Made by a program: the position numbers and the translations under genes
In this document: positions 1,311 through 38,082 of the stretch, piece after piece
Position numbering within the stretch: position 1 is the first letter of the stretch
How the letters are laid out: each line of letters opens with the position of its first letter
NCBI GenBank assembly: GCA_000992165.1
Contig: LBTS01000026.1
Coordinates: forward strand, 1-38,657
Source: Candidatus Moranbacteria bacterium GW2011_GWC2_37_8
GTDB lineage: Bacteria > Patescibacteriota > Minisyncoccia > Moranbacterales > GWC2-37-73
Reading direction: 5' to 3'
Length of the DNA: 38,657 bases
Notes under the pieces: model-generated
What the model was told of the DNA's origin: nothing
The model's database searches: none
Seen by the model: only the letters and a program-made list of their open reading frames with translations

Positions 1311-1337
1311 CTAGGCTTTAGCTTTTTAGCTTCTTAG
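1311..1337. repeat. TAGCTTTT-octamer element, half copy (start-proximal arm only)
   Basis: CTAGGCTTTAGCTTTTTAGCTTCTTAG ends 10 nt from the start codon at 1300. No inverted partner; an unrelated hairpin ACTACCA/TGGTAGT lies at 1352-1377. Confidence 0.7.
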
Positions 1338-2731: not shown

Positions 2732-3562
2732 TTATTTTAACAATTTTTTATCCTGCGGACTTTTCAAATAATTATATTTACTAACAACTGATTTCCCCAA
2801 TCTCTTTTCCAGATTTTTTCTAGCGCCTCCTGCGATATCGCCACCAGCTTTGGCATCAGCCTTGAGCTTAGCGGTTCCTTTTGAATCTTCAACGCGATGA
2901 ATTTCTGTCTTTGACCGCTCTCCAAGCATCGTGAAAATCAATTCGAAGTCGTCCATGTGGTCGCGCAAATTTTCTCTCTTCAATCCTTTGAATTTTTTGT
3001 ATTCATCTGGCGTGACACCAAAAGTCGCCTTGGAAATCTCCGCTGTCAAAATTTCATAGTCTCTTTGCTCGCGTGCTCCACGCTTTTGCCACTCATCAGT
3101 CAGCTCCTCGCGAATTGCAATCCCGCGCATTCGCTTTCCAATCCAATCATCAGAATATCCTTTTGCTTTATACAAAAATCTTGTTCTCTTTGTTGCCAAC
3201 TCTGGATTTTCAATTTCCTGCACTCTTTCAAATCCAGTTTTTGCCAGCCATCGCTTGATAGGTTCAGCCTTTGGTGATGGAATTGATTGTATAATGCGAA
3301 ATAATTGTTCAACATTGCCGGCAAGTGTTTTTCTTTTTTTACCAGATTCAGTCTCCATTTCTACCTGGGGACAATTTGTCCCTATGTACAATCCAACTTC
3401 AATATCTCTCTTTCGTAATTTTTTCAGATAATCTGTAGCATTTTTTGAATCTGTCAAAGACTCAACAATGTCCACAACTGAAAAATACCACTCGTTCTTA
3501 TGAATTTGTTTTCTAATTTTTTTGTCTTGAAACAGCACGATTTTTGTTATTTTTTCATCCAT
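2732..3562 (-). CDS. Bro-N / DinD-like (DNA-damage-inducible protein D-like) protein
   Basis: 276 aa. N-terminus KIVLFQDKKIRKQIHKNEWYFSVVDIVESLT resembles the Bro-N/KilA-N fold. Charged C-terminal half resembles DinD-type proteins. Confidence 0.55.
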   Translation of the reverse strand: MDEKITKIVLFQDKKIRKQIHKNEWYFSVVDIVESLTDSKNATDYLKKLRKRDIEVGLYIGTNCPQVEMETESGKKRKTLAGNVEQLFRIIQSIPSPKAEPIKRWLAKTGFERVQEIENPELATKRTRFLYKAKGYSDDWIGKRMRGIAIREELTDEWQKRGAREQRDYEILTAEISKATFGVTPDEYKKFKGLKRENLRDHMDDFELIFTMLGERSKTEIHRVEDSKGTAKLKADAKAGGDIAGGARKNLEKRLGKSVVSKYNYLKSPQDKKLLK

Positions 3563-3634
3563 TTTTTCGTTTTAAATTGTTACAGTGATATCATAACACT
3601 ATAACAAAAACGTATCAACCAAAACTGTGTATAA

Positions 3635-4051
3635 CTACAAAACCATTTCAATAAATTCCCTACTGGACGGCAAGAATTCGAAATTATCCAAGTCATTTTC
3701 ATTTGCCCATTTCAAATCATTAATCTTCTTGTCATTCAAATGAAGTTTACCATCAATCAGTTTACAACAATAGCAAAGCACAATGGTGTGTTGATGTTTG
3801 TCAGCATACTCCCAAACCTTGGAAATTGTCTTTGGCAAAAGATTTACAATCTGCACATTCAATCCTGTTTCCTCCAGAATTTCCCTAACAAGCGTTTCCT
3901 CAAGACTTTCTCCAAATTCATTCTTTCCTCCTGGCAAATCCCATTTCAAATGCACCTCCGGAAGTTCCTCTTCGAAACGCTGACTGATCAGGATCTCGCC
4001 GTTATCATTCTCAACAATCCCAAGTACAACAAGTTTAGATGTCAATTTCAT
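3635..4051 (-). CDS. NUDIX hydrolase
   Basis: Nudix box GGKNEFGESLEETLVREILEETGL. The ATG at 4051 forms an ATGA overlap with the upstream stop. The longer track ORF starts at a GTG (4072). Confidence 0.85.
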   Translation of the reverse strand: MKLTSKLVVLGIVENDNGEILISQRFEEELPEVHLKWDLPGGKNEFGESLEETLVREILEETGLNVQIVNLLPKTISKVWEYADKHQHTIVLCYCCKLIDGKLHLNDKKINDLKWANENDLDNFEFLPSSREFIEMVL

Positions 4052-4709: not shown

Positions 4710-5105
4710 TTATATCAAAATCAAATCCTTATACTTCTCATCATTTTCAGTGGTATATTCCACAACCTCCAACATAATTTTATCTTCCATATTTTTCGGC
4801 AAAGCTATAATCTGAAAATTCTTCGGCCCCACTCGCATGGCAAATTTCAAATCAGTAACAAAATCATATTTCAAGTATTTGGTCACGAATTTATCCGTAA
4901 AACCGATATGGAATTTTGTAGGTTTCGGTGCCATGGCATGCAAAACAACAATCTTATCCCAAGACTGAATCACAGCTTCATTATATTCCTCATCTTTCTC
5001 CGGATTGATTGGCATAGCCTTTTTATTCCCAGCAACATACACGCTGGCAATTTCCGGCCAATTCTTATCTCCAATCAGATTGTTTTCCAACTTAAAATTT
5101 TTCAT
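4710..5105 (-). CDS. Hypothetical protein
   Basis: 131 aa ORF with ATG start, 2 nt after the downstream gene start, co-directional and tightly packed. No motif recognised. Confidence 0.6.
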   Translation of the reverse strand: MKNFKLENNLIGDKNWPEIASVYVAGNKKAMPINPEKDEEYNEAVIQSWDKIVVLHAMAPKPTKFHIGFTDKFVTKYLKYDFVTDLKFAMRVGPKNFQIIALPKNMEDKIMLEVVEYTTENDEKYKDLILI

Positions 5106-5114
5106 AGCATTTTA

Positions 5115-5144
5115 TCATTCTGGGCTTGATCCGGAATTTCCTGA
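5115..5144. repeat. REP/MITE-like palindromic unit (degenerate GTCATTCC...GGAAT family member)
   Basis: TCATTCTGGGCTTGATCCGGAATTTCCTGA. Compare GTCATTCCGGACTTGATCCGGAATCCAGGA at 11811. Fills the 5106-5147 intercistronic gap. Confidence 0.6.
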
Positions 5145-11365: not shown

Positions 11366-11802
11366 TCATACCAAACAATTTCGAGCCCAGGATTTTTTCC
11401 CCATTCTTCTTCTGAAATTTTTCCAGCAGTAAAATCTTCCGTACGCTTTGCCAGTAAGTTCAGTTCATTTTTTGTGACCCATTTATATTGCTTTGTTTCC
11501 TCTTCACTTCTTTTGACTTCACCAGCAACTTCAACTTCAAAAATCTGCCAGTAATGCCAAGTACCGTCAATTCTTCTGCATGGATTTTCTTTGCGACCTT
11601 CTGTTAATAATTTTAAAGATTTTGTTTGCAAACCCACCTCTTCCTCCAATTCTTTTTTGGCAGTGAATTCAAAGTCATCGCCATCACAATGTCCAGCTGG
11701 CGGCGCATATGCAAATGGAAATTTTGCACGCTCAATCAAAAGTAATTTCTCACCTTTCCAAACCAACATTCCAACACATTTATGATCACAAATCTTTGCC
11801 AT
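11338..11802 (-). CDS. NUDIX hydrolase
   Basis: PAGHCDGDDFEFTAKKELEEEVGL Nudix box. 154 aa. Confidence 0.85.
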   Translation of the reverse strand: MAKICDHKCVGMLVWKGEKLLLIERAKFPFAYAPPAGHCDGDDFEFTAKKELEEEVGLQTKSLKLLTEGRKENPCRRIDGTWHYWQIFEVEVAGEVKRSEEETKQYKWVTKNELNLLAKRTEDFTAGKISEEEWGKNPGLEIVWYEWMKELKII

Positions 11803-11810
11803 ATAATTGT

Positions 11811-11928
11811 GTCATTCCGGACTTGATCCGGAATCCAGGATTTATAACTACCATTAACAATAAACGCTATTTCCTATTAACTTACTTAATCCTGTTTTAT
11901 CCTGGATTCCTGCCTACGCAGGAATGAC
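11811..11928. mobile_element. MITE/REP-like element with hairpin termini (GTCATTCC...GGAATGAC)
   Basis: Left end GTCATTCCGGACTTGATCCGGAATCCAGGA. Right end TCCTGGATTCCTGCCTACGCAGGAATGAC. Each end is an 8 bp hairpin. Occupies nearly the whole 11803-11933 gap. Confidence 0.7.
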
Positions 11929-11933
11929 AAGGT

Positions 11934-12365
11934 TTATAATTTTATGTTATTCAGATCTCCATTGAGCACCACATCATACGTCGCTTTAATTTCATCCGCA
12001 TATGAAACTTCTTCGGGAATAGGATTTAAAAGAAAAATTTTCTTATCGTGCACATGCGCATAACCGATCTCCATCAGCACATTTCCGCCTATGTAGTTTT
12101 TAATGCCCTTCTTATCAAAATTTAAAACCAAAATACCATCACTATTGCAAATTGCGTCGTAGTACCATTTTATATATCCTTGAGCCTTCTTTGCTTCAGC
12201 GTGCTCACCATTAATCACTTGATTCCAAATCTCTTGTTTATCGCCATTAATAAATGCTTCATAATCCGGATGCACAATTGCCTCATGACCTAGATCAGCA
12301 AGAAGCTTTTTATATTCAATCATCTTTTCCTTGAAAGCTGAACTCCCACAAATAGTAATTTTCAT
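11934..12365 (-). CDS. Nucleoside 2-deoxyribosyltransferase-like protein
   Basis: 143 aa. MKITICGSSAF...GGNVLMEIGYAHVHDKKIFLL fits the same fold family as 10919-11365. Confidence 0.55.
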   Translation of the reverse strand: MKITICGSSAFKEKMIEYKKLLADLGHEAIVHPDYEAFINGDKQEIWNQVINGEHAEAKKAQGYIKWYYDAICNSDGILVLNFDKKGIKNYIGGNVLMEIGYAHVHDKKIFLLNPIPEEVSYADEIKATYDVVLNGDLNNIKL

Positions 12366-12723: not shown

Positions 12724-12832
12724 ATTAGCTTTTTAGCTTCTTAGGCTTTAGCTTTTTAGCAAAGCAAGAGCTAACAATTAAATTATTATACATATATAAC
12801 TAAAAAGCTAATAAGCTAACACCTAAAAAGCT
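12724..12832. repeat. TAGCTTTT-octamer palindromic element, full copy
   Basis: Left arm ATTAGCTTTTTAGCTTCTTAGGCTTTAGCTTTTTAGC (12724-12760). Right arm CTAAAAAGCTAATAAGCTAACACCTAAAAAGCT (12800-12832). Fills the gap between stop 12834 and start 12720. Confidence 0.8.
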
Positions 12833-14922: not shown

Positions 14923-14924
14923 GA

Positions 14925-14964
14925 TTTAGCTTCATTAGCTTTTTAGCTTCTTAGCTTCTTAGCT
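14925..14964. repeat. TAGCTTTT-octamer element, half copy (start-proximal arm only)
   Basis: TTTAGCTTCATTAGCTTTTTAGCTTCTTAGCTTCTTAGCT begins 3 nt from the lysS start codon. No inverted arm. Confidence 0.75.
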
Positions 14965-15041
14965 GTCTGAATGAGTTTAGTGATAATACATCAATATTAG
15001 CCTATTATAAGGCTTTTGGCAATGATATTCAGTTTTCCACA

Positions 15042-15436
15042 TTTCTTTTGCCGCAAAAGAAACCTGGAGGAAAGAAAACTCCCGCACGGAGAAATACGGC
15101 GACAAACTGCACACTTCGCTCGCTAAAATTCCTGAACGCTTCGCTTTCACTCAGTTTTTTGAAAAACTTCGTTCACGGAATTTTTACACTCACTTCGTGG
15201 CAGATTTGTATCGGCGTATTTCTAGTGCGAACTCGGGATGCGTTATTCTAAAGTCCTGAATTTTCCCGCACAACATGAAGTACGTAGGCGAAGCGCAAGT
15301 AATGAGCGTAAAAATTTTTGCGAGACGACCCGAGAGGCGCAGTGAAAATTTTAGCGAAGAACGATGCGCGCGCCACAGTATCTTCATTTGTCGCGAAGCT
15401 TTCTTTGTAACTTTCTTTCGGGGGAAAGAAAGTTAA
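15042..15436. other. GC-rich (~43-52%) non-coding island made of two long imperfect palindromes
   Basis: No credible ORF. Perfect terminal hairpins at 15042-15062 and 15409-15436. CCCGCAC repeated 184 bp apart (15081, 15265). Helices include 15089-15101/15210-15222 and 15125-15138/15170-15184. Confidence 0.6.
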
Positions 15437-15504
15437 TTTTACTATACATTATTAAAAAATATATAAATTATGTTTAATTAATTAAACATAATTCGTGAAC
15501 CGAG

Positions 15505-15554
15505 TCCTGGATTCCCTGCCTACCGGCAGGCAGGCGGATCAAGTCCGGAATGAC
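15505..15554. repeat. REP/MITE-like unit (compact nested form of the GTCATTCC family)
   Basis: TCCTGGATTCC-CTGCCTACCGGCAGGCAGG-CGGATCAAGTCCGGAATGAC. This is the reverse complement of the 11811 end with a hairpin module inserted. Confidence 0.65.
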
Positions 15555-15576
15555 AAAGACTCAGAACACTAAAACA

Positions 15577-15606
15577 CAAAAAGAGCGACCTAAGTCGCTC
15601 TTTTAA
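15577..15606 (-). terminator. Intrinsic terminator after greA
   Basis: AGAGCGAC (15582-15589), loop CTAA, GTCGCTCT (15594-15601). A T-run follows on the minus strand (TTTTTGTGTTTT). Confidence 0.75.
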
Positions 15607-15629
15607 AATAAGTAAAGAAATCTTTTGAA

Positions 15630-16085: not shown

Positions 16086-16166
16086 AGCCTTCTTTCATTT
16101 TAGTGATTAAAAAATACCGCTCGAAAACGGCAAAAACCATACTTATCATGATTTGCAAACACATCT

Positions 16167-16195
16167 ATAATATCGAAAAATTGCCGCCTTGTCAA
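16167..16195 (-). promoter_or_regulatory. greA promoter TTGACA-17-TATTAT
   Basis: Minus strand reads ggggTTGACAaggcggcaatttttcgaTATTATagat. Confidence 0.5.
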
Positions 16196-16298
16196 CCCCG
16201 CTTAGAAATTTCATTTTTATTGTCAAAACTGAAATTTTATATTTTAATTTTCAGATTTTACAAGTTACAAAAAAACTACTTTCGAAATTTCTAACGGG
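16196..16298. mobile_element. MITE-like insertion with 15-17 bp terminal inverted repeats and a 5 bp direct flank
   Basis: Left TIR CCCCGCTTAGAAATTTC (16196-16212). Right TIR GAAATTTCTAACGGG (16284-16298). GTCAA lies on both flanks (16191-16195 and 16299-16303). Confidence 0.45.
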
Positions 16299-16356
16299 GT
16301 CAACCCTATCAAACACCCAACAAAAACCATGGCGATTCATCAATAATATTATACAC

Positions 16357-16385
16357 GCAAAAAATTAATCTTTAATAAAGATTAA
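16357..16385 (-). terminator. Intrinsic terminator after rseP
   Basis: TTAATCTTT (16365-16373), loop AAT, AAAGATTAA (16377-16385). TTTTTT follows on the minus strand (16364-16359). Confidence 0.55.
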
Positions 16386-16450
16386 TTAGTTTAATAGGGT
16401 AAAAAGTTGAAAAATTAACAGAAAAACTTCCAATTCATACAGCGGATACC

Positions 16451-17584: not shown

Positions 17585-17622
17585 AAATATAATAACAAAA
17601 ATACACCCATGAATTATGGTTT

Positions 17623-17735
17623 ATAATTTTGAATTTTTAATTTTGAATTTTGATTCAATTTTTTAATGTTTTAATTTTGAAACATTCAGTCATTCAGATT
17701 TCATTCGAAATTAGAAATTCATAATTCGAAATTAT
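17623..17735. repeat. Inverted arrays of AATTTTGAA / TTCGAAATT words (intercistronic, frr-rseP)
   Basis: Left ATAATTTTGAATTTTTAATTTTGAATTTTGATTCAA. Right TTCATTCGAAATTAGAAATTCATAATTCGAAATTAT. Central hairpin AATGTT/AACATT. Confidence 0.65.
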
Positions 17736-17739
17736 CTTA

Positions 17740-21981: not shown

Positions 21982-22030
21982 ATGCAGTCATCAGTAATCG
22001 GTCATCAGTAATCAGATGAGATGTCTTCTG

Positions 22031-22914: not shown

Positions 22915-23496
22915 TTATCGTTTTGCCCACTGTGGAGCTTTTCGAGCTTTCTTCAGACCGGCTTTCTTTCGTTCAACTTCGCGAGCATCGCGAGTCATAA
23001 GTCCAAGGTCTTTCAAAGATTTCTTCAATTCTGGGTTGAAAACAACCAAAGCGCGAGAAATACCAAGTCTAACCGCTTCAACTTGTCCAGTAACACCACC
23101 TCCACGAACCAAAACTGTCATACGGAATTTTCCTTGCATTCCAACAGCCTTAAGTGGAGTCATGAAATTGTTTTGGAGGTTAATGGTTGGGAAATAGTCT
23201 TTCAATTTCTTTCCATTGATTACCAAATCGTTGTCAGTTGCCTTTTCGTCTGCATAAAGGCGCACTTGGGCAACCGATGTTTTGCGACGTCCTACAGCGT
23301 AGAAATAAGGATCGTTTGATTTCTTTACAACCTTTTCAGTCTTAACAGCTTTTGGAGCTTCAACTTTTTCCACTTTTTCAACTTTAGGAGCCTTTACAGC
23401 CTTAACAGCCTTCTCAGCTTTCGGAGCTGCGGCCTTAGCTGCCTTTTTTACAGGAGCTTTTTTAACTTTATCAGTTTCTGCCTTTTTTACTGCCAT
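22915..23496 (-). CDS. rpsI: 30S ribosomal protein S9 with a ~60 aa Lys/Ala/Pro/Val-rich N-terminal extension
   Basis: C-terminal 130 aa are canonical S9 (YAVGRRKTSVAQVRL...KKAGLKKARKAPQWAKR). The N-terminus is MAVKKAETDKVKKAPVKKAAKAAAPKAEKAVKAVKAPKVEKVEKVEAPKAVK. Confidence 0.95.
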   Translation of the reverse strand: MAVKKAETDKVKKAPVKKAAKAAAPKAEKAVKAVKAPKVEKVEKVEAPKAVKTEKVVKKSNDPYFYAVGRRKTSVAQVRLYADEKATDNDLVINGKKLKDYFPTINLQNNFMTPLKAVGMQGKFRMTVLVRGGGVTGQVEAVRLGISRALVVFNPELKKSLKDLGLMTRDAREVERKKAGLKKARKAPQWAKR

Positions 23497-23502
23497 AATA
23501 TT

Positions 23503-23596
23503 CAGGTTTTAGCTTTTTAGCTTTTTAGCTTTTTAGGAAATACATTCATGCCAATCCGGACCCCTAAGAAGCTAATAAGCTAATGCCTAATAAGCT
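23503..23596. repeat. TAGCTTTT-octamer palindromic element, full copy (rplM-rpsI gap)
   Basis: Left CAGGTTTTAGCTTTTTAGCTTTTTAGCTTTTTAGG. Right CCTAAGAAGCTAATAAGCTAATGCCTAATAAGCT. 21-position stem (23517-23537 with 23563-23583) containing 1 wobble and 1 mismatch. Confidence 0.85.
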
Positions 23597-23598
23597 TT

Positions 23599-23988
23599 TT
23601 AATGTGTAAATTCAATATTCTTAAAAGAGTGCTCGCTGCCTCCAAAAACATGCAGGCGAAGCATCATTTTATCACGCAATTTGTTCTTTGGAAGCATTCC
23701 GTAAACAGCATTTTGCATAACTTTTCCAGCGTCTTTCTTCAAAAGATCCTTTAGAGCGATAGCTGAGATACCTCCTGGATATCCACTGTATTTGTGGTAA
23801 ATCTTACCTTCTAACTTATTCCCTGTAACATGAATCTTTTCCATGTTAATCACAATAACAAAGTCACCTCCGTCAATGTGCGGGACATAGTCAACTTTAT
23901 TGCGTCCACTTAATGTCTTTGCTATTTCAGTTGCCAAGCGACCAAGCACTTTTCCCTGAGCATCAAAGAGATGATAATGTCTATTCAT
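23599..23988 (-). CDS. rplM: 50S ribosomal protein L13 (short, 129 aa)
   Basis: LFDAQGKVLGRLATEIAKTLSGRNK...GGDFVIVIN...KIYHKYSGYPGG. Confidence 0.95.
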   Translation of the reverse strand: MNRHYHLFDAQGKVLGRLATEIAKTLSGRNKVDYVPHIDGGDFVIVINMEKIHVTGNKLEGKIYHKYSGYPGGISAIALKDLLKKDAGKVMQNAVYGMLPKNKLRDKMMLRLHVFGGSEHSFKNIEFTH

Positions 23989-23997
23989 AATATTATT

Positions 23998-24088
23998 TCA
24001 CTAATTTACACCAATTTCCCACCAATCATCACAAATATTTCATTCATTCGTGCGCATTAGTGATTTTATTCGTGATTATTCGTGCGTG
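23998..24088. repeat. Inverted arrays of CAC(T/C)AAT / ATT(C/A)GTG words (rplQ-rplM gap)
   Basis: Left TCACTAATTTACACCAATTTCCCACCAATCATCAC. Right ATTCGTGCGCATTAGTGATTTTATTCGTGATTATTCGTGCGTG. Confidence 0.6.
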
Positions 24089-24454: not shown

Positions 24455-24542
24455 ATTATTAACTCATAACTTTCAACTTATAACTCATAACATCATTATC
24501 CGTTTTACAGTTGTCAGTTTTTAGTTGTTAGTTGTTAGTTAT
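24455..24542. repeat. Inverted heptamer arrays (NNNAACT)5 / (AGTTNNN)5 (rpoA-rplQ gap)
   Basis: Left TTAACTCATAACTTTCAACTTATAACTCATAAC. Right AGTTGTCAGTTTTTAGTTGTTAGTTGTTAGTTATT. Period 7 in both arms. Confidence 0.65.
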
Positions 24543-25511: not shown

Positions 25512-25602
25512 ATCCTCTTTCTAACGGGCAGCTCATGGATATCTCCACAAGAAGCACGTTTTTCAATTAAAAAAGTTAAGGAAAACAAAAATGAAAACTT
25601 GT

Positions 25603-26250: not shown

Positions 26251-26344
26251 ATTAGCTTCTTAGCTTTTCAGCTTTTCAGCTACTTTTAAAAAAATATTAC
26301 ATTTGTTACACCTAAACAGCTAATAAGCTAATGCCTAAGAAGCT
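26251..26344. repeat. TAGCTTTT-octamer palindromic element, full copy (rpsK-rpsD gap)
   Basis: Left ATTAGCTTCTTAGCTTTTCAGCTTTTCAGCT. Right CCTAAACAGCTAATAAGCTAATGCCTAAGAAGCT. Confidence 0.8.
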
Positions 26345-26822: not shown

Positions 26823-26832
26823 AATTATAATT

Positions 26833-26927
26833 CTAGCTTTTTAGCTTTTTAGGCTTTTAGCTTTTTAGATTTGATTGATTACTTTCCGCATTTTAGGACT
26901 AAAGCTAACAAGCTAGTGCCTAAGAAG
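26833..26927. repeat. TAGCTTTT-octamer palindromic element, full copy (rpsM-rpsK gap)
   Basis: Left CTAGCTTTTTAGCTTTTTAGGCTTTTAGCTTTTTAG. Right CTAAAGCTAACAAGCTAGTGCCTAAGAAG. Confidence 0.8.
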
Positions 26928-26933
26928 TTTTTA

Positions 26934-27320
26934 CTAGGTTTTTGATTCAGATCGTCTTCCGCTTCCCATAGTTCTTCGCACGTTTCCACGAACTGTTCGA
27001 CTGTTTGTCTTTGTTCGTTGTCCGTTAACCGGTAATCCTTTCTGGTGACGAGTTCCGCGATAGCTACCAATTTCTTTCAAGCGTTTGATGTTCATCTTAA
27101 CTTCATGCTTAAGCTCACCTTCAACTTTGTGCTTCTTTTCAATTTCATCACGAAGCTTGTTGGCGTCATCAGACGACAAATCTTTTGTGCGAGTATTTGG
27201 ATCGATACCAAGTAGTCCCAAAAGTTTGCGACTAGTTGAAGGCCCAATACCGAAAACGTAAGTTAGGGCAATTTCGATTCTTTTTTCATCAGGAAGGTTG
27301 ATTCCAGCAATACGTACCAT
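26934..27320 (-). CDS. rpsM: 30S ribosomal protein S13
   Basis: [26 protein letters not shown]...[20 protein letters not shown]. Confidence 0.95.
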
Positions 27321-27404
27321 AAATTTTATAAGTATCTATTTAATCACTAATTATATTTGCTAGCAGTCCAGTACATGTTCTTTGCTGCTGCAGTAACAAA
27401 TCTC

Positions 27405-27518: not shown

Positions 27519-27605
27519 AATGTTTTCCTACACTCCACTTATAACTTTTTCTCCAAATTACTTTGGTAATTTGTCATTAGTTGTGAGTCTTTAGTTATTA
27601 GTTAT
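27519..27605. repeat. Intercistronic hairpin with ATAACT/AGTTAT word arrays (infA-rpmJ gap)
   Basis: Core CAAATTAC-TTTG-GTAATTTG. Flanks ACTTATAAC... and ...TTAGTTGTGAGTCTTTAGTTATTAGTTATT. Confidence 0.6.
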
Positions 27606-28140: not shown

Positions 28141-28338
28141 CTAGTTGGTCTCATTTTGAACTTCAACCGAAACTCTTGATGAATATTGAGGGATTCTAGT
28201 GATAAAACTTGGGGTAAATTCGACATTTGCGCTCTTTATTGAATCATATTTCCTCAATATATCAGCTAATTGGTCATCACTTTTACCCAATAACTCTTTC
28301 TTTACTTGAGGTAAGTTAATGAGCGGTGTGGATATCAC
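28141..28338 (-). CDS. Small hypothetical protein, translationally coupled to the upstream gene
   Basis: 65 aa. ATGA start/stop overlap with 28335-29990. Confidence 0.5.
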   Translation of the reverse strand: MISTPLINLPQVKKELLGKSDDQLADILRKYDSIKSANVEFTPSFITRIPQYSSRVSVEVQNETN

Positions 28339-29990
28339 GTTTCTTCAAAATTTGGCTCTGCACTGCCATAATCAATTTTGGAAATTTCAGTTTTTACGGA
28401 GTTTAATTGCGAATCAATTTTTAATGAATCAATTACCACATTTTTCACATCATTTTCAGAAAAAACCAGCGTCTTGATGGAACCCGTCACTATCCAGTCA
28501 AATGAATCAGTCCTAGAACCAAGTTTAGCGGAAGATGACGATTTAGTAATGGTAATTTTTTCAGCTTGATTCAATACCATTTCGTCTGAAACAAGCTGCT
28601 GCTTCATAACGTCTTTCATTTTCTCCTTAAAGGCATCTTCAGCTTTCTGTTTTGCACCATCCAAATCTTGCTGGGTAATAGTTCCGGGACTCACTATTTG
28701 AGCATCACCAGATCCTCCCGCAGTTGCGGAATCCGAACTTGCATAAAATTTCTCGAATTTGGGCCCGCCAGCAAATCCTGGAATTGTAAATTTAGTCGCG
28801 TCAATATTATATTCATCGCCGGCATTATCAGCAGTAATTTCAGCTTGAATAACGCCTGGCTTCAATTGTCCTCCAATATTTGAATATCCAGGCACCACTA
28901 CATTCTTGATGAGCCTAAATATTTTTCCGTCTGTTGTCTCTAAGCGTGTTGTAGCAATAAGTGTTTGAGGTTCTGGACTAAATTCATTATAAATAACCAC
29001 TGTGCCACGAGCTTTTTTGCCTGATGATTCGCCCATTCCTTTTACTTCAAATGGCAACGAAAATTGCTCTTCCTTTTCAATACTTCTTAGTAGAATAACC
29101 GAATCGTCTTCACTTATGGCGCCGACTGCCTTAATTTCCATATCTATTTTCTTTTTAGATATATCTGACTTGATTATGATTTTAGCGCTAGGAATAAACA
29201 GATACCCACCCACTCCAAGAAATACTAGCGCGCATGTCATCAGAAAAGCTAGGAAAACTTTTTTAATTTTTCCACCCCCAATACTCTTAGATTGAGTTTG
29301 AGCAGATTCTGAATTATTAGACCTTGCTGAATACATTTTTTCAAGAGTTTCTGCTTTATAGGGGTCAAGTTGATTTTTATATAAATTTTTATTTGCGGCG
29401 CTACTTCCCGATGTCGCACGCCTTACATTATCTTGTTTGATTGCAACCTCTTTTCGCAGGTTCGATTTAACTTTATTAAGAACAATCTTTTCTGGTTTTT
29501 CTTTCCTATCTGAAGCGCGACTAACTGGCGCAGTTTTAGCAGCTTTCAAATTATTCGCTGGCAATTCTTTCAGATCTCGACGCAGACCAGATTGATAATA
29601 TTCCCCAGAACCAATATTACTAAGTCTTGCCTGCTTATCATTTCTAGAATCCATCACTTTTTCAAATTCAATATCTCTTGTTTGCTCACCTTCCTCATTT
29701 TCTTGGTCATTATAAACATCTAAAGACGAGTCGAGGCCTTCCAATGAAGTGCAAGCTTCTATACCACTTCTCTCAGCCATTGAAATTGCAATTTCGTCTT
29801 GAGTTACAATTATCACACGCTTTGAAATTTTATCTGCTTCTCTTTTTAGAATTTTCAAATTCACAATGCTCTGCAAAAAGAGTGCTCTTTTAGGCACAAC
29901 AAAATAATTATCGCTAGACATTGATTTATTAAGCCTATCAATGACTGAGGAAATTTCTTCGTCAACATCAATATAAAATGTTTGATGCAT
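28335..29990 (-). CDS. Single-pass membrane protein of unknown function (cytoplasmic N-domain, disordered linker, extracytoplasmic beta-rich domain)
   Basis: 551 aa. TM segment VFLAFLMTCALVFLGVGGYLFI near residue 245. The segment ARGTVVIYNE...TTRLETTDGKIFRL...AEITADNAGDEYNI recalls baseplate-J-like domains (weak, from memory). Confidence 0.65.
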   Translation of the reverse strand: MHQTFYIDVDEEISSVIDRLNKSMSSDNYFVVPKRALFLQSIVNLKILKREADKISKRVIIVTQDEIAISMAERSGIEACTSLEGLDSSLDVYNDQENEEGEQTRDIEFEKVMDSRNDKQARLSNIGSGEYYQSGLRRDLKELPANNLKAAKTAPVSRASDRKEKPEKIVLNKVKSNLRKEVAIKQDNVRRATSGSSAANKNLYKNQLDPYKAETLEKMYSARSNNSESAQTQSKSIGGGKIKKVFLAFLMTCALVFLGVGGYLFIPSAKIIIKSDISKKKIDMEIKAVGAISEDDSVILLRSIEKEEQFSLPFEVKGMGESSGKKARGTVVIYNEFSPEPQTLIATTRLETTDGKIFRLIKNVVVPGYSNIGGQLKPGVIQAEITADNAGDEYNIDATKFTIPGFAGGPKFEKFYASSDSATAGGSGDAQIVSPGTITQQDLDGAKQKAEDAFKEKMKDVMKQQLVSDEMVLNQAEKITITKSSSSAKLGSRTDSFDWIVTGSIKTLVFSENDVKNVVIDSLKIDSQLNSVKTEISKIDYGSAEPNFEET

Positions 29991-29995
29991 ACAAT

Positions 29996-30067
29996 CAGGT
30001 TTTAGCTTTTTAGCTTTTTAGCTTTTTAGAATTCCTAAGAAGCTGAGAAGCTAATGCCTAATTAGCT
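29996..30067. repeat. TAGCTTTT-octamer palindromic element, best-preserved copy (ftsA to next-gene gap)
   Basis: Pairing 30010-30029 with 30034-30054: 19 pairs including 3 T-G wobbles, 1 bulge, loop AATT. Confidence 0.85.
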
Positions 30068-31500: not shown

Positions 31501-32508
31501 TCAGCAAATTGATTTCACAATAACATTATCCGCCAATATTTCAATCTCTTTTTCATCCAAAAGTCCTTTCTGTCCTCCGTATTCAGTAACCGAATTCGAA
31601 CTATTTGCAATTCCCCATTTTAAACATGTTTCCAAATTGTGACGTTTAATGAAGGATGCAAAAAATCCGCTCGTGAACGCATCTCCCGCTCCAGTAGTAT
31701 CAACGGCTCTTTGCATAATGGCTTTAGCATGCATCATAACATTTCCATCATACGCCCAAGCGCCTCTTTCTCCGTCCGTTATGGCAACCACTTCGGATCC
31801 TAATCTTCGCAAAACTTTCAATAAATATTCCTCACTTTCTAAAAGTTCTCTAACAGCAATTTCTCCGCATCCGGAAACTATTTCTATTGCTTCATCCTTA
31901 TTCACAAATAATATGTCGCAACTACCAATTGTATGCACAATTTTAAGTATATCCTCATGAATTGTCTTTTGTCGCGGATTAAAAGCAACGTGAATCTTTT
32001 TTTCCTTTACATACGAAAGTATGCCATCCAAGTTTTGCTGCCAATTCCCACTTAGGTCCCCAATAAAAAACCAATGCGGATATTTAATCAATCTTCCATC
32101 AAAGGCCATCCTTTGACTTGCCACATGACTGGAAAAAATAACTCTGTCTACGCAATTACTTTCAACCAAAATAGCTGACAAATCACTCTTGCAATCAGAT
32201 TCAATTTTTATATGTTCAATTCCAATGCCTGCATTTTGAACCTGCTTCAATATCCACTTGCCTGTCATATCGTCGCCAATAGTTGCATAGGATGAAACAT
32301 TTTCTCCAAGCTTTGCCAATCCTGCTGCGACATTAATGCTATTTCCTCCCAATGTCTCATGTCGATCTTCAATTGCATATTTTGCGCCCAATTCAAAAGC
32401 AATTTTTTTTTGCGAAAGAATATCATCGGGAGTTTCAATAAGCACACCCTCCTTGGTTGGAAAAAATATATCCTGGCAGGCGGAACCAATTGTGATTATT
32501 TTAGACAT
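31501..32508 (-). CDS. PfkB-family carbohydrate/nucleoside kinase (ribokinase-like)
   Basis: 335 aa. GGNSINVA (GG motif) and DTTGAGDAF (ATP/anion-hole motif). Confidence 0.85.
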   Translation of the reverse strand: MSKIITIGSACQDIFFPTKEGVLIETPDDILSQKKIAFELGAKYAIEDRHETLGGNSINVAAGLAKLGENVSSYATIGDDMTGKWILKQVQNAGIGIEHIKIESDCKSDLSAILVESNCVDRVIFSSHVASQRMAFDGRLIKYPHWFFIGDLSGNWQQNLDGILSYVKEKKIHVAFNPRQKTIHEDILKIVHTIGSCDILFVNKDEAIEIVSGCGEIAVRELLESEEYLLKVLRRLGSEVVAITDGERGAWAYDGNVMMHAKAIMQRAVDTTGAGDAFTSGFFASFIKRHNLETCLKWGIANSSNSVTEYGGQKGLLDEKEIEILADNVIVKSIC

Positions 32509-32510
32509 GT

Positions 32511-32540
32511 TATCTATTTTTATGTTTGTATGTTTGTATG
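32511..32540. repeat. Tandem TATGTTTG octamers ((CAAACATA)3 on the mRNA strand) abutting the kinase start codon
   Basis: TTATGTTTGTATGTTTGTATGTTTTTATG fills the eno-kinase gap. No inverted arm. Confidence 0.7.
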
Positions 32541-32543
32541 TTT

Positions 32544-35623: not shown

Positions 35624-35766
35624 ATTTAGATTGGCATATAACTGATAACTTGCAACTGATAACCAAAAATATCGAGTTTGTTTCTTGCTATATTGTTATC
35701 AGCTATATATTGCTAGTTATATATTATATATTATATGTTATATGTTATAAGTTATATGTTATTTAT
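35624..35766. repeat. ATAAC/GTTAT word arrays and TATATGTTA tandem repeats (mraY-pgk gap)
   Basis: CTGATAAC (twice, left) pairs with GTTATCAG (right). Right end is TATATATTATATATTATATGTTATATGTTATAAGTTATATGTTAT. Confidence 0.65.
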
Positions 35767-36867
35767 TTATCTTCCCATTCCAAAAATTGCAATCACAACT
35801 CCCATAAGAGCTGTAACCATTGTAAAAATCCAGGCACGCATAACAATTTTACATTCCGGCCATCCCTTAGCTTCAAAATGATGATGCAGGGGTGCCGCTA
35901 AGAAAACTTTACGATGAAAATATTTTTTACTTAAGAGTTGAATTGTCACACTGCCTGATTCCAACACATATACAAGCACTATCAAAAACAAAACCACAGC
36001 TGAATTTGTAAGCATTGCAACGACGCCAAGAGTTGTGCCTAATGACATCGCTCCAGTATCCCCCATCATAAAGCGAGCTGGCTGTATATTGAACCACAGA
36101 AAGGCTAGGATCACGCCTGACATAGCTGCGCAAAAAGCTGAAAGATTAACTTTATTTTGAAAAAATGCGATGATTGCAAAGGAAAAAAAGGCCAGCAATA
36201 AAACCCCGCCATTAAGACCATCGAGTCCATCTGTTTCATTTGAAGAAACTGCAGCAAATAAAATTACGAAAATAAAAAGAGGAATATACCAAAGACCGAT
36301 TGAAAAATCTCCAAAAGCCGGGATATGCAAAACATCCCAACCTAATTTGTAGTAAAACCAAAATCCGCCAGCTGTCGCAATAGCAATTAGCCAGCCGAAA
36401 CGCATCGCAAAACGCATTCCGCCGCCCTTATTTTTCCCCCAACCTCGCACACTCATAACATCATCAAAAAGTCCCAAAACTCCAGCTGAAGCCAGCGCGA
36501 AAAGAGGAAGCCATACTTCCTTACGGCTCAAAAAATCGAGTCTGGCCAAAAAATTCATATCAAAAAGTTTTCCAAAAAACGGGAAAAGGAAATGGGAAGA
36601 GAAGGCCAATATGATAATAGAAATCCACATTATTACTCCACCCATCGTAGGTGTTCCAGATTTATGAGCATGTAAGCTGCTGACAAATTTCAGCTTCTCT
36701 CCGTTTACATCACTGCTTTTAATCTTAATACCGAGTTTATATTTATAAAGTAAATGCGTCCAAAGTGGAGTAATCGCAAAAGCCAAAATGAATGCAATCA
36801 GCCCAGTACTAAGAACCTTGAGAACATTAACTACTTCTGGAATTGTTTGAATTTGTGCAAATTGCAT
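35767..36867 (-). CDS. mraY: Phospho-N-acetylmuramoyl-pentapeptide transferase
   Basis: 366 aa, ~10 TM. GTPTMGG, NETDGLDGL and HHHFE motifs. Confidence 0.95.
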   Translation of the reverse strand: MQFAQIQTIPEVVNVLKVLSTGLIAFILAFAITPLWTHLLYKYKLGIKIKSSDVNGEKLKFVSSLHAHKSGTPTMGGVIMWISIIILAFSSHFLFPFFGKLFDMNFLARLDFLSRKEVWLPLFALASAGVLGLFDDVMSVRGWGKNKGGGMRFAMRFGWLIAIATAGGFWFYYKLGWDVLHIPAFGDFSIGLWYIPLFIFVILFAAVSSNETDGLDGLNGGVLLLAFFSFAIIAFFQNKVNLSAFCAAMSGVILAFLWFNIQPARFMMGDTGAMSLGTTLGVVAMLTNSAVVLFLIVLVYVLESGSVTIQLLSKKYFHRKVFLAAPLHHHFEAKGWPECKIVMRAWIFTMVTALMGVVIAIFGMGR

Positions 36868-36969
36868 TTGATTAAATCACTAATCAACACTAATTAACCA
36901 CTAATTTTCACTAATAATTTATTTGTGCTGATTCGTGAGTATTTTTATTTGTGATTATTCGTGACTTGG
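36868..36969. repeat. Inverted arrays of CACTAAT / ATT(C/T)GTG words (second locus of this word family)
   Basis: Left AATCACTAATCAACACTAATTAACCACTAATTTTCACTAATAA. Right TTATTTGTGCTGATTCGTGAGTATTTTTATTTGTGATTATTCGTGAC. Confidence 0.65.
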
Positions 36970-38004
36970 CTATTGCCAAGTATAAGCTTTGAATGTCCAA
37001 TCAATTGCAGTGCGGATATCTTGCCAACGATGACTGTCATCCAATAAAACTGCAATGATTCGATGTTTACCAGTTGGGTCAGTAGCTCCCATGAGAAGTG
37101 AGTATCCAGCCAGTGGCGTAAAGCCAGTTTTTCCGCCTATAACATCTGGGACTTCATTAAGAATAAGATCAGTATTTAAAATCGTATGAACAAGGTTCCC
37201 ATCCATTGAAGCAACTTTGGTATTACTTGGCTGCCTAAAAACTTTCCAGATATAATCGTAGCGCATCGAGTAAGCAGCGATTCTTCCGATATCATATGCG
37301 GAAGAATAACATTCAGATTCTCGTCCATCAATTTCCAAGCCTGAAGCTGTGCAGAAATGAGTATTAGATAATCCAAGTTGCTTGGCTTTTAAATTCATGA
37401 CCTCGGCAAAAGACTCCTGAGTCCCTGACATATGTTTAGCTAGTGCAATTGCCGCATCATTAGCACTGTTCATTAGCATTGCTTGCAATAAATTGCGAGC
37501 TGAAATTTTTTCATCAATTTTTAATCGCTGACTAATGCAATAACCACTTCGAGGGCATCCTACTTTAGTACCTTCAATATATACTTCTTCTTCTCCAATA
37601 GTGACCGCCTCATCAAGATCCTTTATTTTTTCCATTGCTAATGTAGCAGTCATCATTTTAGTTAATGATGCTATTTGTCTCTCATCCGTTGGATGATTAC
37701 CTGCTAAAAGCTCTCCAGTGTCAGCATCAATGATTGCAAATGCATGCGCATTCGGAAGCACTAAATTAGAAACATTCTCATTTCTAACGGTCTTATATTT
37801 AGGATTATCCACTGCTTGAGCCTTCAGCTTAATAGGTTCAGGTATCTTTTGAATTTCTGTGCCTTTTACTGAACCTTGAACAGCAGTTTCAATCCCATAT
37901 CCATCAGCCTGCACAAATCTGCCACTCGAAAGACCCTCATGAAAAAGCAAAAGGGAATTAAGCGGAAACGCAATAATCATTAAAATGGTTGCCCCTATAC
38001 CCAT
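36970..38004 (-). CDS. D-alanyl-D-alanine carboxypeptidase (S11, PBP5-like), membrane-anchored
   Basis: SLTK (SxxK), SAN (SxN) and KTGFT (KTG) motifs. N-terminal TM segment. Confidence 0.88.
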   Translation of the reverse strand: MGIGATILMIIAFPLNSLLLFHEGLSSGRFVQADGYGIETAVQGSVKGTEIQKIPEPIKLKAQAVDNPKYKTVRNENVSNLVLPNAHAFAIIDADTGELLAGNHPTDERQIASLTKMMTATLAMEKIKDLDEAVTIGEEEVYIEGTKVGCPRSGYCISQRLKIDEKISARNLLQAMLMNSANDAAIALAKHMSGTQESFAEVMNLKAKQLGLSNTHFCTASGLEIDGRESECYSSAYDIGRIAAYSMRYDYIWKVFRQPSNTKVASMDGNLVHTILNTDLILNEVPDVIGGKTGFTPLAGYSLLMGATDPTGKHRIIAVLLDDSHRWQDIRTAIDWTFKAYTWQ

Positions 38005-38082
38005 ATTTATATAAAATTTTCAATTTATAATTTTCAATTTTCATTGAATGTTCAGCTTTTTATCCACCAACCGTTAGCTAAA

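Follow-up and report, generated by a model that had tools for sequence, protein, structure and literature searches.

AGCT-octamer palindromes between genes of a Moranbacteria ribosomal-protein operon: dispersed repeats that may act as looped-out leaders

What does a palindrome built of tandem octamers do in the spacer between two ribosomal-protein genes? The question is raised by positions 23503 to 23596 of contig LBTS01000026.1 from Candidatus Moranbacteria bacterium GW2011_GWC2_37_8, a groundwater Candidatus Moranbacteria of the Parcubacteria, within the Patescibacteria or candidate phyla radiation (CPR). The contig, 38,657 nucleotides (nt) long and analysed over its full length, is called the window here. 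A preliminary description of the sequence had recognised seven copies of this element, which we call the AGCT element after the core of its repeat unit. We find that the AGCT-octamer family occurs widely across Patescibacteria and is largely restricted to this group. Its members are operon-internal, neither promoters nor terminators, and strictly polar towards start codons; they fill their spacers snugly, turn over rapidly, vary in concert within genomes and have sister families of identical design. The explanation that we favour, with a probability of about 0.45, is that these are dispersed, fast-turnover intergenic palindromic repeats, the surviving copies of which would act as looped-out mRNA hairpins with an A-rich leader for Shine-Dalgarno (SD)-independent, coupled translation.

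Tandem TAGCTTNT octamers occur at all seven loci of the preliminary description, and Tandem Repeats Finder returned period-8 arrays at 7/7 loci, with 2.6-4.9 copies each. The 19-mer TAGCTTTTTAGCTTTTTAG, with up to 3 mismatches, has 17 matches, all within the seven intergenic loci, where dinucleotide shuffles lead one to expect 0.08; the right-arm core GCTAATGCCTAAKAAGCT has 7 matches vs. 0.14 expected. The earlier argument for common descent (or copying) over chance is thus borne out. No copy lies inside a coding sequence in the window and three are in the ribosomal-protein operon, as had been noted, at the rpsM-rpsK, rpsK-rpsD and rplM-rpsI junctions. The two-arm architecture ascribed to all seven holds for five, which are full palindromes, but not for the other two, which are single arms without an inverted partner (half copies). 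The copies are as follows:

23503 to 23596, minus strand: focal AGCT palindrome, 94 bases, from the rplM stop to the rpsI start; on the plus strand, T-arm at 23503-23537 (CAGG, three TTTTAGCT and TTTTAGG), loop at 23538-23562 and A-arm at 23563-23596 (CCTAAGAAGCTAATAAGCTAATGCCTAATAAGCT)
26251 to 26344, minus strand: full AGCT palindrome from the rpsK (S11) stop to the rpsD (S4) start; -32.2 kcal/mol, z = -4.05
26833 to 26927, minus strand: full AGCT palindrome with the weakest stem, from the rpsM (S13) stop to the rpsK (S11) start
29996 to 30067, minus strand: full AGCT palindrome with a 5-nt loop, between the stop of an FtsA/PilM-like gene and the start of a 551-aa hypothetical gene; -22.7 kcal/mol, z = -3.3
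12724 to 12832, minus strand: full AGCT palindrome with a 39-nt loop, between the stop of an HD-domain gene and the start of a 117-aa hypothetical gene; -33 kcal/mol, z = -2.9
1311 to 1337, minus strand: half copy that consists of the start-proximal A-rich array (mRNA CUAAGAAGCUAAAAAGCUAAAGCCUAG) and stops 10 nt short of the ATG of gene 560-1300; its 80-nt spacer has no inverted partner
14925 to 14964, minus strand: half copy (CUAAGAAG/CUAAAAAG)4-5 that closes a 707-nt non-coding stretch, 2 nt short of the lysS ATG

On the mRNA, the stop codon is followed after 2-8 nt by (UAGCUUNU)n, of which UUAGGCAUUAGC is a variant; then come 5-39 nt of unrelated loop sequence, (ANAAGCUA)n, often ACCUGAU, and 4-5 A or U ahead of the AUG. 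This is the layout of a full copy. The 5′ arm of the focal mRNA is the complement of the A-arm, and its 3′ arm reads (CUAAAAAG)3-ACCUGA. The perfect A-rich array, (CUAAAAAG)n, is start-proximal on the minus-strand mRNA in 7/7 copies, in agreement with the uniform orientation and intergenic position reported before, and ends 2-14 nt ahead of the ATG in every one of them. The close fit from stop to ATG is seen for the full copies (2-6 nt after the stop, 3-14 nt before the ATG), but half copies adjoin the ATG only. The CUGA(A/U)U box that had been singled out ahead of the AUG is real in 3-4 copies; it forms the 3′ foot of the stem, CCUGAU being paired with AUUAGG.

Full copies are predicted to fold at -19 to -33 kcal/mol, with z scores of -2.6 to -4.1 relative to dinucleotide shuffles, the exception being the rpsM-rpsK copy (26823-26933, -19.1 kcal/mol, z = -1.2). 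The predicted stem is a run of 7-bp helices with a 1x1 mismatch every 8 nt; the focal spacer (23497-23598, -28.4 kcal/mol, z = -2.6) likewise consists of 7-bp helices with single mismatches between them. Every copy is closed by stop codons in all six reading frames. Because the AGCT element is in outline its own reverse complement, each strand has a T-rich arm on the 5′ side of the loop and an A-rich arm on the 3′ side; the ends of the arms are inverted but imperfectly matched (AUUAGGCAUUAGC vs. GCUAAAACCUGAU). A scan of Rfam 15 at E ≤ 1 gave no match to a curated RNA family, only chance-level microRNA-precursor matches at 29993-30063 that are far under the gathering scores.

Placement relative to genes was scored in 676 gaps of 40-400 nt from about 170 fetched loci, 97 of them with AGCT arrays. 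An inverted partner arm is present in 59/97 scored loci (about 60%), and the order is T-arm then A-arm in 58 vs. 1. Random orientation genome-wide, which the preliminary description had named as contrary to its reading, is not what is found in these gaps. Full elements occupy 48/526 co-directional gaps, 1/76 convergent gaps and about 4 genuine divergent gaps. In the co-directional set (n = 48), the medians are 6 nt from the stop to the first AGCT core and 10 nt from the last core to the start, and the unpaired tails of the hairpins have medians of 5 and 8 nt. Half copies before a start present the A-rich array in the sense strand in 21 cases vs. 8 for the U-rich array. In a strict scan of co-directional gaps, the asymmetric end GCUAAAACCUGA has the sense orientation in 9 vs. 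0 instances and lies on the start-codon side of the spacer, 4-8 nt upstream of the ATG; a second scan found a same-strand gene within 40 nt downstream of this end in 17/17. Since all genes that follow the scored GCUAAAACCUGA ends are on the majority strand, the directions of transcription and replication are confounded in these counts. A minority-strand PEGA-domain gene has the U-rich arm after its own stop, in its own sense, in three lineages; this sole informative minority-strand site favours an orientation that follows transcription.

The family extends well beyond the window and the seven copies of the preliminary description. A scan with TAGCTTTTTAGCTTYTTAG over 185,579 species-representative genomes gave at least 116 loci, 80 records of which were listed and supply the counts by label. 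Among the matches listed, 45 are labelled Patescibacteria, including Parcu-, Moran-, Buchanan-, Nomura-, Nealson-, Kerfeld-, Doudna-, Peregrini-, Peri- and Saccharibacteria and Altimarinota; 26 of these 45 records have the full T-arm/loop/A-arm palindrome, at a locus GC of 30-58%, as have 8/30 of the listed records with other labels. One of the latter, L056 (CAZHUO010000013.1), is titled 'uncultured Gammaproteobacteria', but its GyrA is 80-88% identical to Buchananbacteria/Patescibacteria proteins, so that this record, the one checked, looks mislabelled. L025, L037, L064, L076, L081 and L075, which are metagenome-assembled genome records titled 'uncultured Gammaproteobacteria' or 'Bdellovibrionales', are probably mislabelled too. 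The other non-CPR matches listed (Psychromonas, Shewanella, Acinetobacter and others) are plain (AGCTTTTT)n arrays without a partner arm. From the termini of the adjacent proteins, CPR matches could be placed at the ribosomal junctions rpmJ-rpsM (L010, L031, L077, L078) and rpsK-rpsD (L078, L100), with further ones before rpsC (L080), between rpsC and rplP (L072) and before groEL (L009).

A phage vector was considered and set aside: a scan of IMG/VR gave 11 matches, all simple arrays without a palindrome. Three of the loci have several AGCT hairpins arranged head to tail, in alternation with short unique segments, in a single intergenic region of 300-450 nt (L064 4560-4850, L081 5130-5520, L098 3170-3600). 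Such clusters resemble those of REPINs and, superficially, a CRISPR-like array.

Turnover is apparent when orthologous spacers are compared one by one in four syntenic loci, obtained by identical-protein look-ups, and 47 loci from an S4-based metagenome scan. Every ribosomal junction in these relatives, about 45 in all, is either 1-30 nt long or filled by a periodic hairpin of 75-135 nt, and one and the same junction can hold different families in genomes with 72-93% S4 identity. The rplM-rpsI spacer, 102 nt in the window, is TTTT or AAAT in L124 and L126. At the rpsK-rpsD site, there is an AGCT element in L125, an AATTTTC-type element in L123 and just 38-43 nt in L124 and L126; the rpoA-rplQ site is of AGCT type in L123, L124 and L127 and only 1-14 nt long in many relatives; and at rpmJ-rpsM, the spacer contents of three close relatives all differ. 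Nine relatives have an AGCT element at the rpsM-rpsK site. Most of these copies share the loop segment UAUAAACAUUUUAUAAAAAGCU and are therefore orthologous; in two relatives both arms have become 7-mers with pairing kept, and in one the element is decaying. The presence or absence of elements and the swapping of families at orthologous spacers argue against a conserved regulated stem-loop, one of the roles suggested initially; the others, an A-rich landing pad and RNA processing or stability, may still apply.

Unit variants are specific to genomes: the window has AAAA/AAGA, L124 and L127 both have GAA 7-mers, and three L123 sites have AAUGA/AACGA spacers. This indicates copying or homogenisation within genomes. 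The density of AGCT elements also varies, from 6-7 in the 38.7 kb of the window to zero in 10-20 kb of many other Moranbacteria. At the level of strains, no indel was found in any element among six same-population assemblies that are 99.8-100% identical. The same assemblies do have a 28-nt indel at about 28339, at the 3′ end of gene 28335-29990 (551 vs. 625 aa products), and a 35-nt indel at about 19676, in a hairpin adjoining tRNA-Lys.

At least eight unit families fill the junctions of the lineage: AGCT; CGAAT/ATTAGYG; AAAAATC...GATTTT with a conserved centre; ACTAACA/GTTRTGA; AATTTTC/GAAATTA; CATAGAA/TGTTCCATG; ACGCRTA/CACGTTT; and AAGTTATAA. The termini of a family beside the AUG are constant across sites and distant genomes; those of the CGAAT family, for example, read GAUUUAUAACAUU-AUG, including in the remote L190. 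Within the window, about 15 of some 40 spacers are repeat-built, with the same architecture made from various units of 7-10 nt. The sister elements in the window are:

23989 to 24088, minus strand: CGAAT-type hairpin with 5′ arm (CACGAAUAAU)n and 3′ arm (AUUAGUG/AUUGGUG)n, at the rplQ-rplM junction; z = -3.6
36868 to 36969, minus strand: second CGAAT-type hairpin (CACGAAU / AUUAGUG), upstream of mraY (35767-36867) and 72% identical to 23992-24084; z = -5.2
24455 to 24542, minus strand: AACUAAC / GUUAUGA heptamer hairpin at the rpoA-rplQ junction; z = -2.3
35624 to 35766, minus strand: AUAACAU / GUUAUCAGUU periodic hairpin, grouped with the preceding one, between the mraY stop and the pgk start; TAACTGA-like units are on the plus strand at 35635-35665
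17585 to 17739, minus strand: AAUUUCGAAU / CAAAAUU periodic element in the spacer of an rseP-like gene and frr
38005 to 38082, minus strand: short GAAAAUU-type array, grouped with the preceding one, just upstream of gene 36970-38004
32509 to 32543, minus strand: start-proximal (ACAUACAA)4 array without a partner arm, filling the 35-nt spacer before gene 31501-32508

How could such elements persist in an operon for ribosomal proteins? In the model that we favour, the AGCT family would spread by copying at the DNA level, and its arms would lengthen, shorten and become uniform as units of 7-8 nt, each arranged around the palindrome AGCT, slip. The palindromic tetranucleotide in each unit would allow AGCU-N4-AGCU mini-hairpins between neighbouring units, favouring slippage. 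In the mRNA, the U-rich arm (UAGCUUNU)n just past the upstream stop would find its partner in the A-rich arm (ANAAGCUA)n, which stops 4-15 nt short of the next AUG; about 90 nt would be looped out by this stem, leaving stop and start at an effective distance of about 13 nt. A ribosome ending the upstream cistron would melt the base of the stem and expose the start-proximal A-rich array, which could then serve as an unstructured leader for SD-independent initiation. Translational coupling would in this way be kept across a 100-nt spacer, and copies unfit for the expression of flanking genes would be lost.

A number of observations weigh against this model. Coupling and leader function are what we infer for the elements. 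For the AGCT family, neither better folding nor a G-U signature was found on the sense strand (13 vs. 12 over 26 relatives' spacers); in the CGAAT family of the relatives, the sense strand folds better in 26 of the 29 comparisons with a clear difference (26 vs. 3). The three outer positions of 66 opposed 4-nt inter-core spacer pairs are complementary in 85-94%, but the variable unit position shows no covariation, the check that had been put forward for the copies: it is Watson-Crick paired in 14/66 vs. 18.3 expected, and mismatched in 79%. The stems are thus systematically interrupted, and the variable base is unconstrained in either arm. A stem maintained by compensatory substitution would leave a different signature, and selection for the AGCT stem at the RNA level is accordingly not demonstrated. 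The pattern fits arms that are constrained as sequence, templating from arm to arm or copy to copy, or selection against long perfect palindromes. Coupling is ruled out as the role of half copies and of copies in divergent spacers, since these have no stem or no upstream open reading frame (ORF). The uniform orientation of the asymmetric ends is not readily accounted for by a pure tolerance filter. The gap statistics given above use simple long-ORF gene calls, some of which are wrong ('divergent' ORF artefacts). Finally, no transposase, target-site duplication or excision polymorphism was found in, respectively, 20 window ORFs compared with Pfam, the relatives' spacers and the six assemblies.

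A more far-reaching reading would make the elements a portable intercistronic translation cassette used throughout Patescibacteria. In lineages that have given up SD pairing, the (CUAANAAG)n array, with a family tail that reaches the AUG, would recruit the ribosome; the array would be recognised by the ribosome/S1 itself or by a periodic RNA-binding protein devoted to it. The complementary arm would make access to the array depend on upstream translation, and unit families would be interchangeable. We regard this reading as rather doubtful.

A possible, though on balance unlikely, alternative is that the elements are selfish or neutral DNA resembling miniature inverted-repeat transposable elements (MITEs) or REPINs, with their orientation set by strand-specific single-stranded DNA (ssDNA) transposition, as in IS200/IS605 and REP/RAYT systems, and their position by the survival of non-lethal insertions. 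Presence and absence and family swapping at orthologous sites, the patchy density among relatives, the genome-specific unit variants, the variable position without covariation and the equal folding of both strands would all be accommodated, and the scored copies are almost all beside majority-strand genes, where transcription and replication are confounded. Neutral insertions should, however, be at least as frequent in convergent gaps as in co-directional ones (1/76 vs. 48/526), the one informative minority-strand gene follows transcription, family-specific termini reach the AUG at different sites and in different genomes, and a single unit is found across CPR classes at 30-58% GC. Nor was a transposase or target-site duplication seen: the Pfam scan of 20 window ORFs and the gene tables of related loci contain no RAYT/transposase; filled and empty orthologous spacers differ by no recognisable target-site duplication, but their flanks offer only 2-10 nt of A/T; and no autonomous insertion sequence with AGCT-element ends was seen in the roughly 1.5 Mb of fetched loci, which were not systematically scanned for one. 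Alternatively, the arrays (CUAAAAAG, UAGCUUUU units) could be a multi-site platform for a sequence-specific, probably oligomeric RNA-binding protein, or for S1, that controls downstream translation, the other arm being an anti-site. HutP and TRAP bind periodic UAG or GAG triplets, HutP at UAG-N4-UAG-N4-UAG, and the AGCT arrays present a UAG every 7-8 nt. A platform would also be consistent with the conservation of 7/8 unit positions, one being free on both arms regardless of pairing, with that of the unit over very distant CPR classes and GC contents, and with lone A-rich arrays just upstream of starts; a like idea has been proposed for TAACTGA repeats (PMC4679880). We nevertheless think it unlikely: at least eight unrelated unit families at the same sites would need many factors, no candidate protein was identified, the downstream genes share no function, and many close relatives have no copy of the family in the regions sampled.

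A role in intercistronic RNA processing or stability, with the stem as an RNase III site or an exonuclease barrier uncoupling the stabilities of the cistrons in the manner of REP, ERIC and Correia elements, has less to recommend it and seems to us improbable. Hairpins of -19 to -33 kcal/mol inside operons would suit such a role, and a carrier of the family, L056, has an RNase III gene (ORF 3039-3731, identified by eye from its translation). The size and position of the elements are like those of REP, ERIC and Correia elements, and REPIN hairpins are comparable in this respect (PMC3116915). A mismatch every 8 bp, however, leaves no long perfect duplex, half copies have no stem, and the usual enrichment at 3′ ends, including convergent gaps, is not seen. 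A signal acting in DNA, such as an uptake sequence for the competence pili that Patescibacteria rely on or a site for a nucleoid or replication protein, is very improbable. Like the DNA uptake sequences of Neisseria, the AGCT unit is an over-represented short motif common to a clade and often occurs in inverted pairs, and its folding is symmetric on both strands; yet the elements are strictly intergenic and tied to start codons, they are absent from sampled regions of many close relatives, and units that recur every 8 bp do not stay in phase with the helical turn of DNA. Ordinary transcription signals have next to no claim, beyond the fact that the AGCT elements are intergenic hairpins. Promoters and intrinsic terminators or attenuators were rejected because no copy contains a -35/-10 pair or a GC-stem with a U tract and full copies are rare in convergent gaps, whereas a consensus scan finds canonical sigma-70 promoters and GC-stem/U-tract terminators nearby in the window, e.g. 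a perfect TTGACA-17-TATAAT promoter at 22845-22817 and terminators at 22303-22258 and 15604-15579.

We found no description of the AGCT-octamer family in the searchable open literature, by topic or by literal repeat sequence, and with no match in Rfam the family apparently is undescribed, in line with the first impression that it falls outside the known classes. The nearest described repeats are the TAACTGA heptamer direct repeats of marine Beggiatoaceae, some Cyanobacteria and Bacteroidetes (MacGregor 2015, PMC4679880), which that paper assigns to the 'long simple sequence repeats' with 5-11-nt units (Mrazek 2007, as cited in PMC4679880). Their function is unknown, although a translational role has been proposed, and the Beggiatoa genome has 169 direct TAACTGA sets and one indirect set (PMC4679880). 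Both kinds of repeat consist of 2-6 tandem copies of a 7-8-nt unit, in one orientation and a few nt upstream of starts; both are strictly intergenic, occur in ribosomal-protein operons and in an SD-poor context, and have a patchy phylogeny. The AGCT family differs in its unit (TAGCTTNT / ANAAGCTA), its Patescibacteria hosts and the several unit families that share sites, and in the common inverted partner (about 60% of scored loci, 5/7 window copies), which makes of the array a spacer-filling hairpin.

REPINs, the RAYT-mobilised doublets of repetitive extragenic palindromic (REP) or BIME modules, consist of two inverted modules with a variable spacer and are predicted to form a hairpin of about 100 nt in ssDNA or mRNA (Bertels & Rainey 2011, PMC3116915). 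They share with AGCT elements the inverted doublet, the spacer hairpin and the extragenic location, as well as high copy number and evolution within a genome, and the decay of REPINs to singlets resembles the AGCT half copies. REP modules, however, are single imperfect palindromes of 20-40 nt and AGCT arms are tandem 8-mers; REPINs are species-specific, linked to RAYTs and spread at random in extragenic space, whereas AGCT elements are polar to genes and shared across classes, and no RAYT was seen for them in the available sequence. Palindromes of 70-150 nt that are MITE-like and transcribed within operons, and that can affect mRNA processing, stability or expression, include Correia/NEMIS in Neisseria, ERIC/IRU in enterobacteria and RUP/BOX in pneumococcus. 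These too are dispersed hairpin repeats co-transcribed with flanking genes and polymorphic for presence and absence, but their arms are unique and non-periodic, they usually have target-site duplications and lie in either orientation, and there is no sequence relationship. As in MITEs, the AGCT arms are terminal inverted repeats, though with imperfect ends. The MIRUs of mycobacteria are reportedly 40-100-bp units with short ORFs overlapping the flanking stop and start codons; they resemble AGCT elements as tandem units in operon intercistronic spacers, in one orientation, that are thought to keep translational coupling. AGCT elements, being closed in six frames, would couple, if at all, via the hairpin. 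The STRR of cyanobacteria, said to be families of intergenic tandem heptamers without known function or mobilisation mechanism, are similar as tandem heptamers in intergenic DNA and different in units and hosts.

Patescibacteria account for a large share of bacterial diversity with tiny genomes and little non-coding DNA, and many lack SD pairing. Repeat-built hairpins make up a large fraction of the longer intercistronic spacers in this lineage, including those of essential ribosomal-protein operons. If they are only selfish repeats, they would be an abundant kind of mobile or expanding DNA that has gone unrecognised in genomes taken to be streamlined, a practical marker for strain typing and a source of errors in assembly and annotation. 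If they are active in initiation or coupling, they would make SD-independent translation in an uncultivated superphylum accessible to experiment.

The AGCT elements do not show the conservation of a cis-regulatory leader, and two other spacers of the same operon behave otherwise, the contrast providing a way to distinguish two kinds of intergenic structure. The infA-rpmJ spacer (27519-27605, minus strand) is a structured leader upstream of rpmJ (L36), the outer UAACUAAAGACUCACAACUAAUGAC...UGGAGAAAAAGUUAUAAGU of which is invariant in 10 relatives; its inner hairpin has 5 covarying pairs with compensatory changes and no Rfam match. It could be an undescribed regulatory RNA of a ribosomal-protein or IF1 operon. 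The rpsD-rpoA spacer (25512-25602, minus strand, about 90 nt) is conserved in all close Moranbacteria relatives as AACUUUUUUAAUUGAAAAACG, a hairpin and GUUAGAAAGAGGAU-AUG, and the arms of the hairpin, as read from the aligned spacers, vary between relatives yet stay complementary. It holds one of only two clear SD-like sites in the window and looks like a dedicated rpoA leader. Upstream of rpsM, 27288-27358 (minus strand) gives a sub-threshold match to Rfam Alpha_RBS, the S4-binding alpha-operon leader (28 bits vs. a gathering score of 38), and the same spacer contains an apparent 3′ remnant of a CGAAT-type element.

The window as a whole has about 36% GC and a GC skew that is negative throughout, with nearly all genes on the minus strand. 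Proteins identical to those of the window are found in Rifle-aquifer groundwater contigs and in GCA_000992985.1, and homologues of its S4 bear the name Candidatus Moranbacteria. The ribosomal copies lie in the cluster infA-rpmJ-rpsM-rpsK-rpsD-rpoA-rplQ-rplM-rpsI, as identified by a Pfam scan, and the focal element is flanked by:

23599 to 23988, minus strand: rplM (L13), Pfam PF00572, E = 3e-41, with its stop codon 2 nt from the focal element
22915 to 23496, minus strand: rpsI (S9), Pfam PF00380, E = 5e-41, with its ATG 6 nt from the focal element

It is true, as the preliminary description stated, that the seven genes downstream of AGCT copies have no SD sequence, but this is uninformative since SD sequences are essentially absent upstream of the 42 window genes, with GAGG-like sites only at rpoA (AAGAGGAU) and greA. 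Start-codon contexts across the window have A/U-rich upstream regions. An anti-SD motif is undetectable in about half of Parcubacteria (Tsurumaki et al., PMC9297842).

Two long non-coding stretches separate co-directional genes in the window, at 14965-15629 (about 665 nt) and 16086-16450 (about 365 nt). They match no Rfam family, tRNA or tmRNA, tRNA-Lys being the only gene of this kind detected in the long spacers. Their predicted structure is very stable; the whole 14923-15629 spacer has a predicted fold of -227 kcal/mol. A separate family of palindromic repeats, (G)TCATTCCGGAYTTGATCCGGAAT(G), akin to ATTCC-N-GGAAT-type repeats, is found at 5098-5137, 11795-11834 and about 15490-15570, and related copies are nested in the loops of AGCT elements in other CPR loci (L081, L098). 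A weak, chance-level match to Wolbachia sRNA 46 covers 11795-11946. On the plus strand, a heptamer/14-mer array (GTCATCAGTAATCG x2) at 21985-22015 comes straight after the stop of the PEGA-domain gene and before a canonical terminator. Within rpsI itself, period-9 tandem repeats rich in AAAGCU (Lys-Ala) at 23331-23429 encode a 60-residue Lys/Ala/Val-rich N-terminal extension of S9; these repeats recall the A-arm unit, so the extension may have originated by in-frame repeat expansion.

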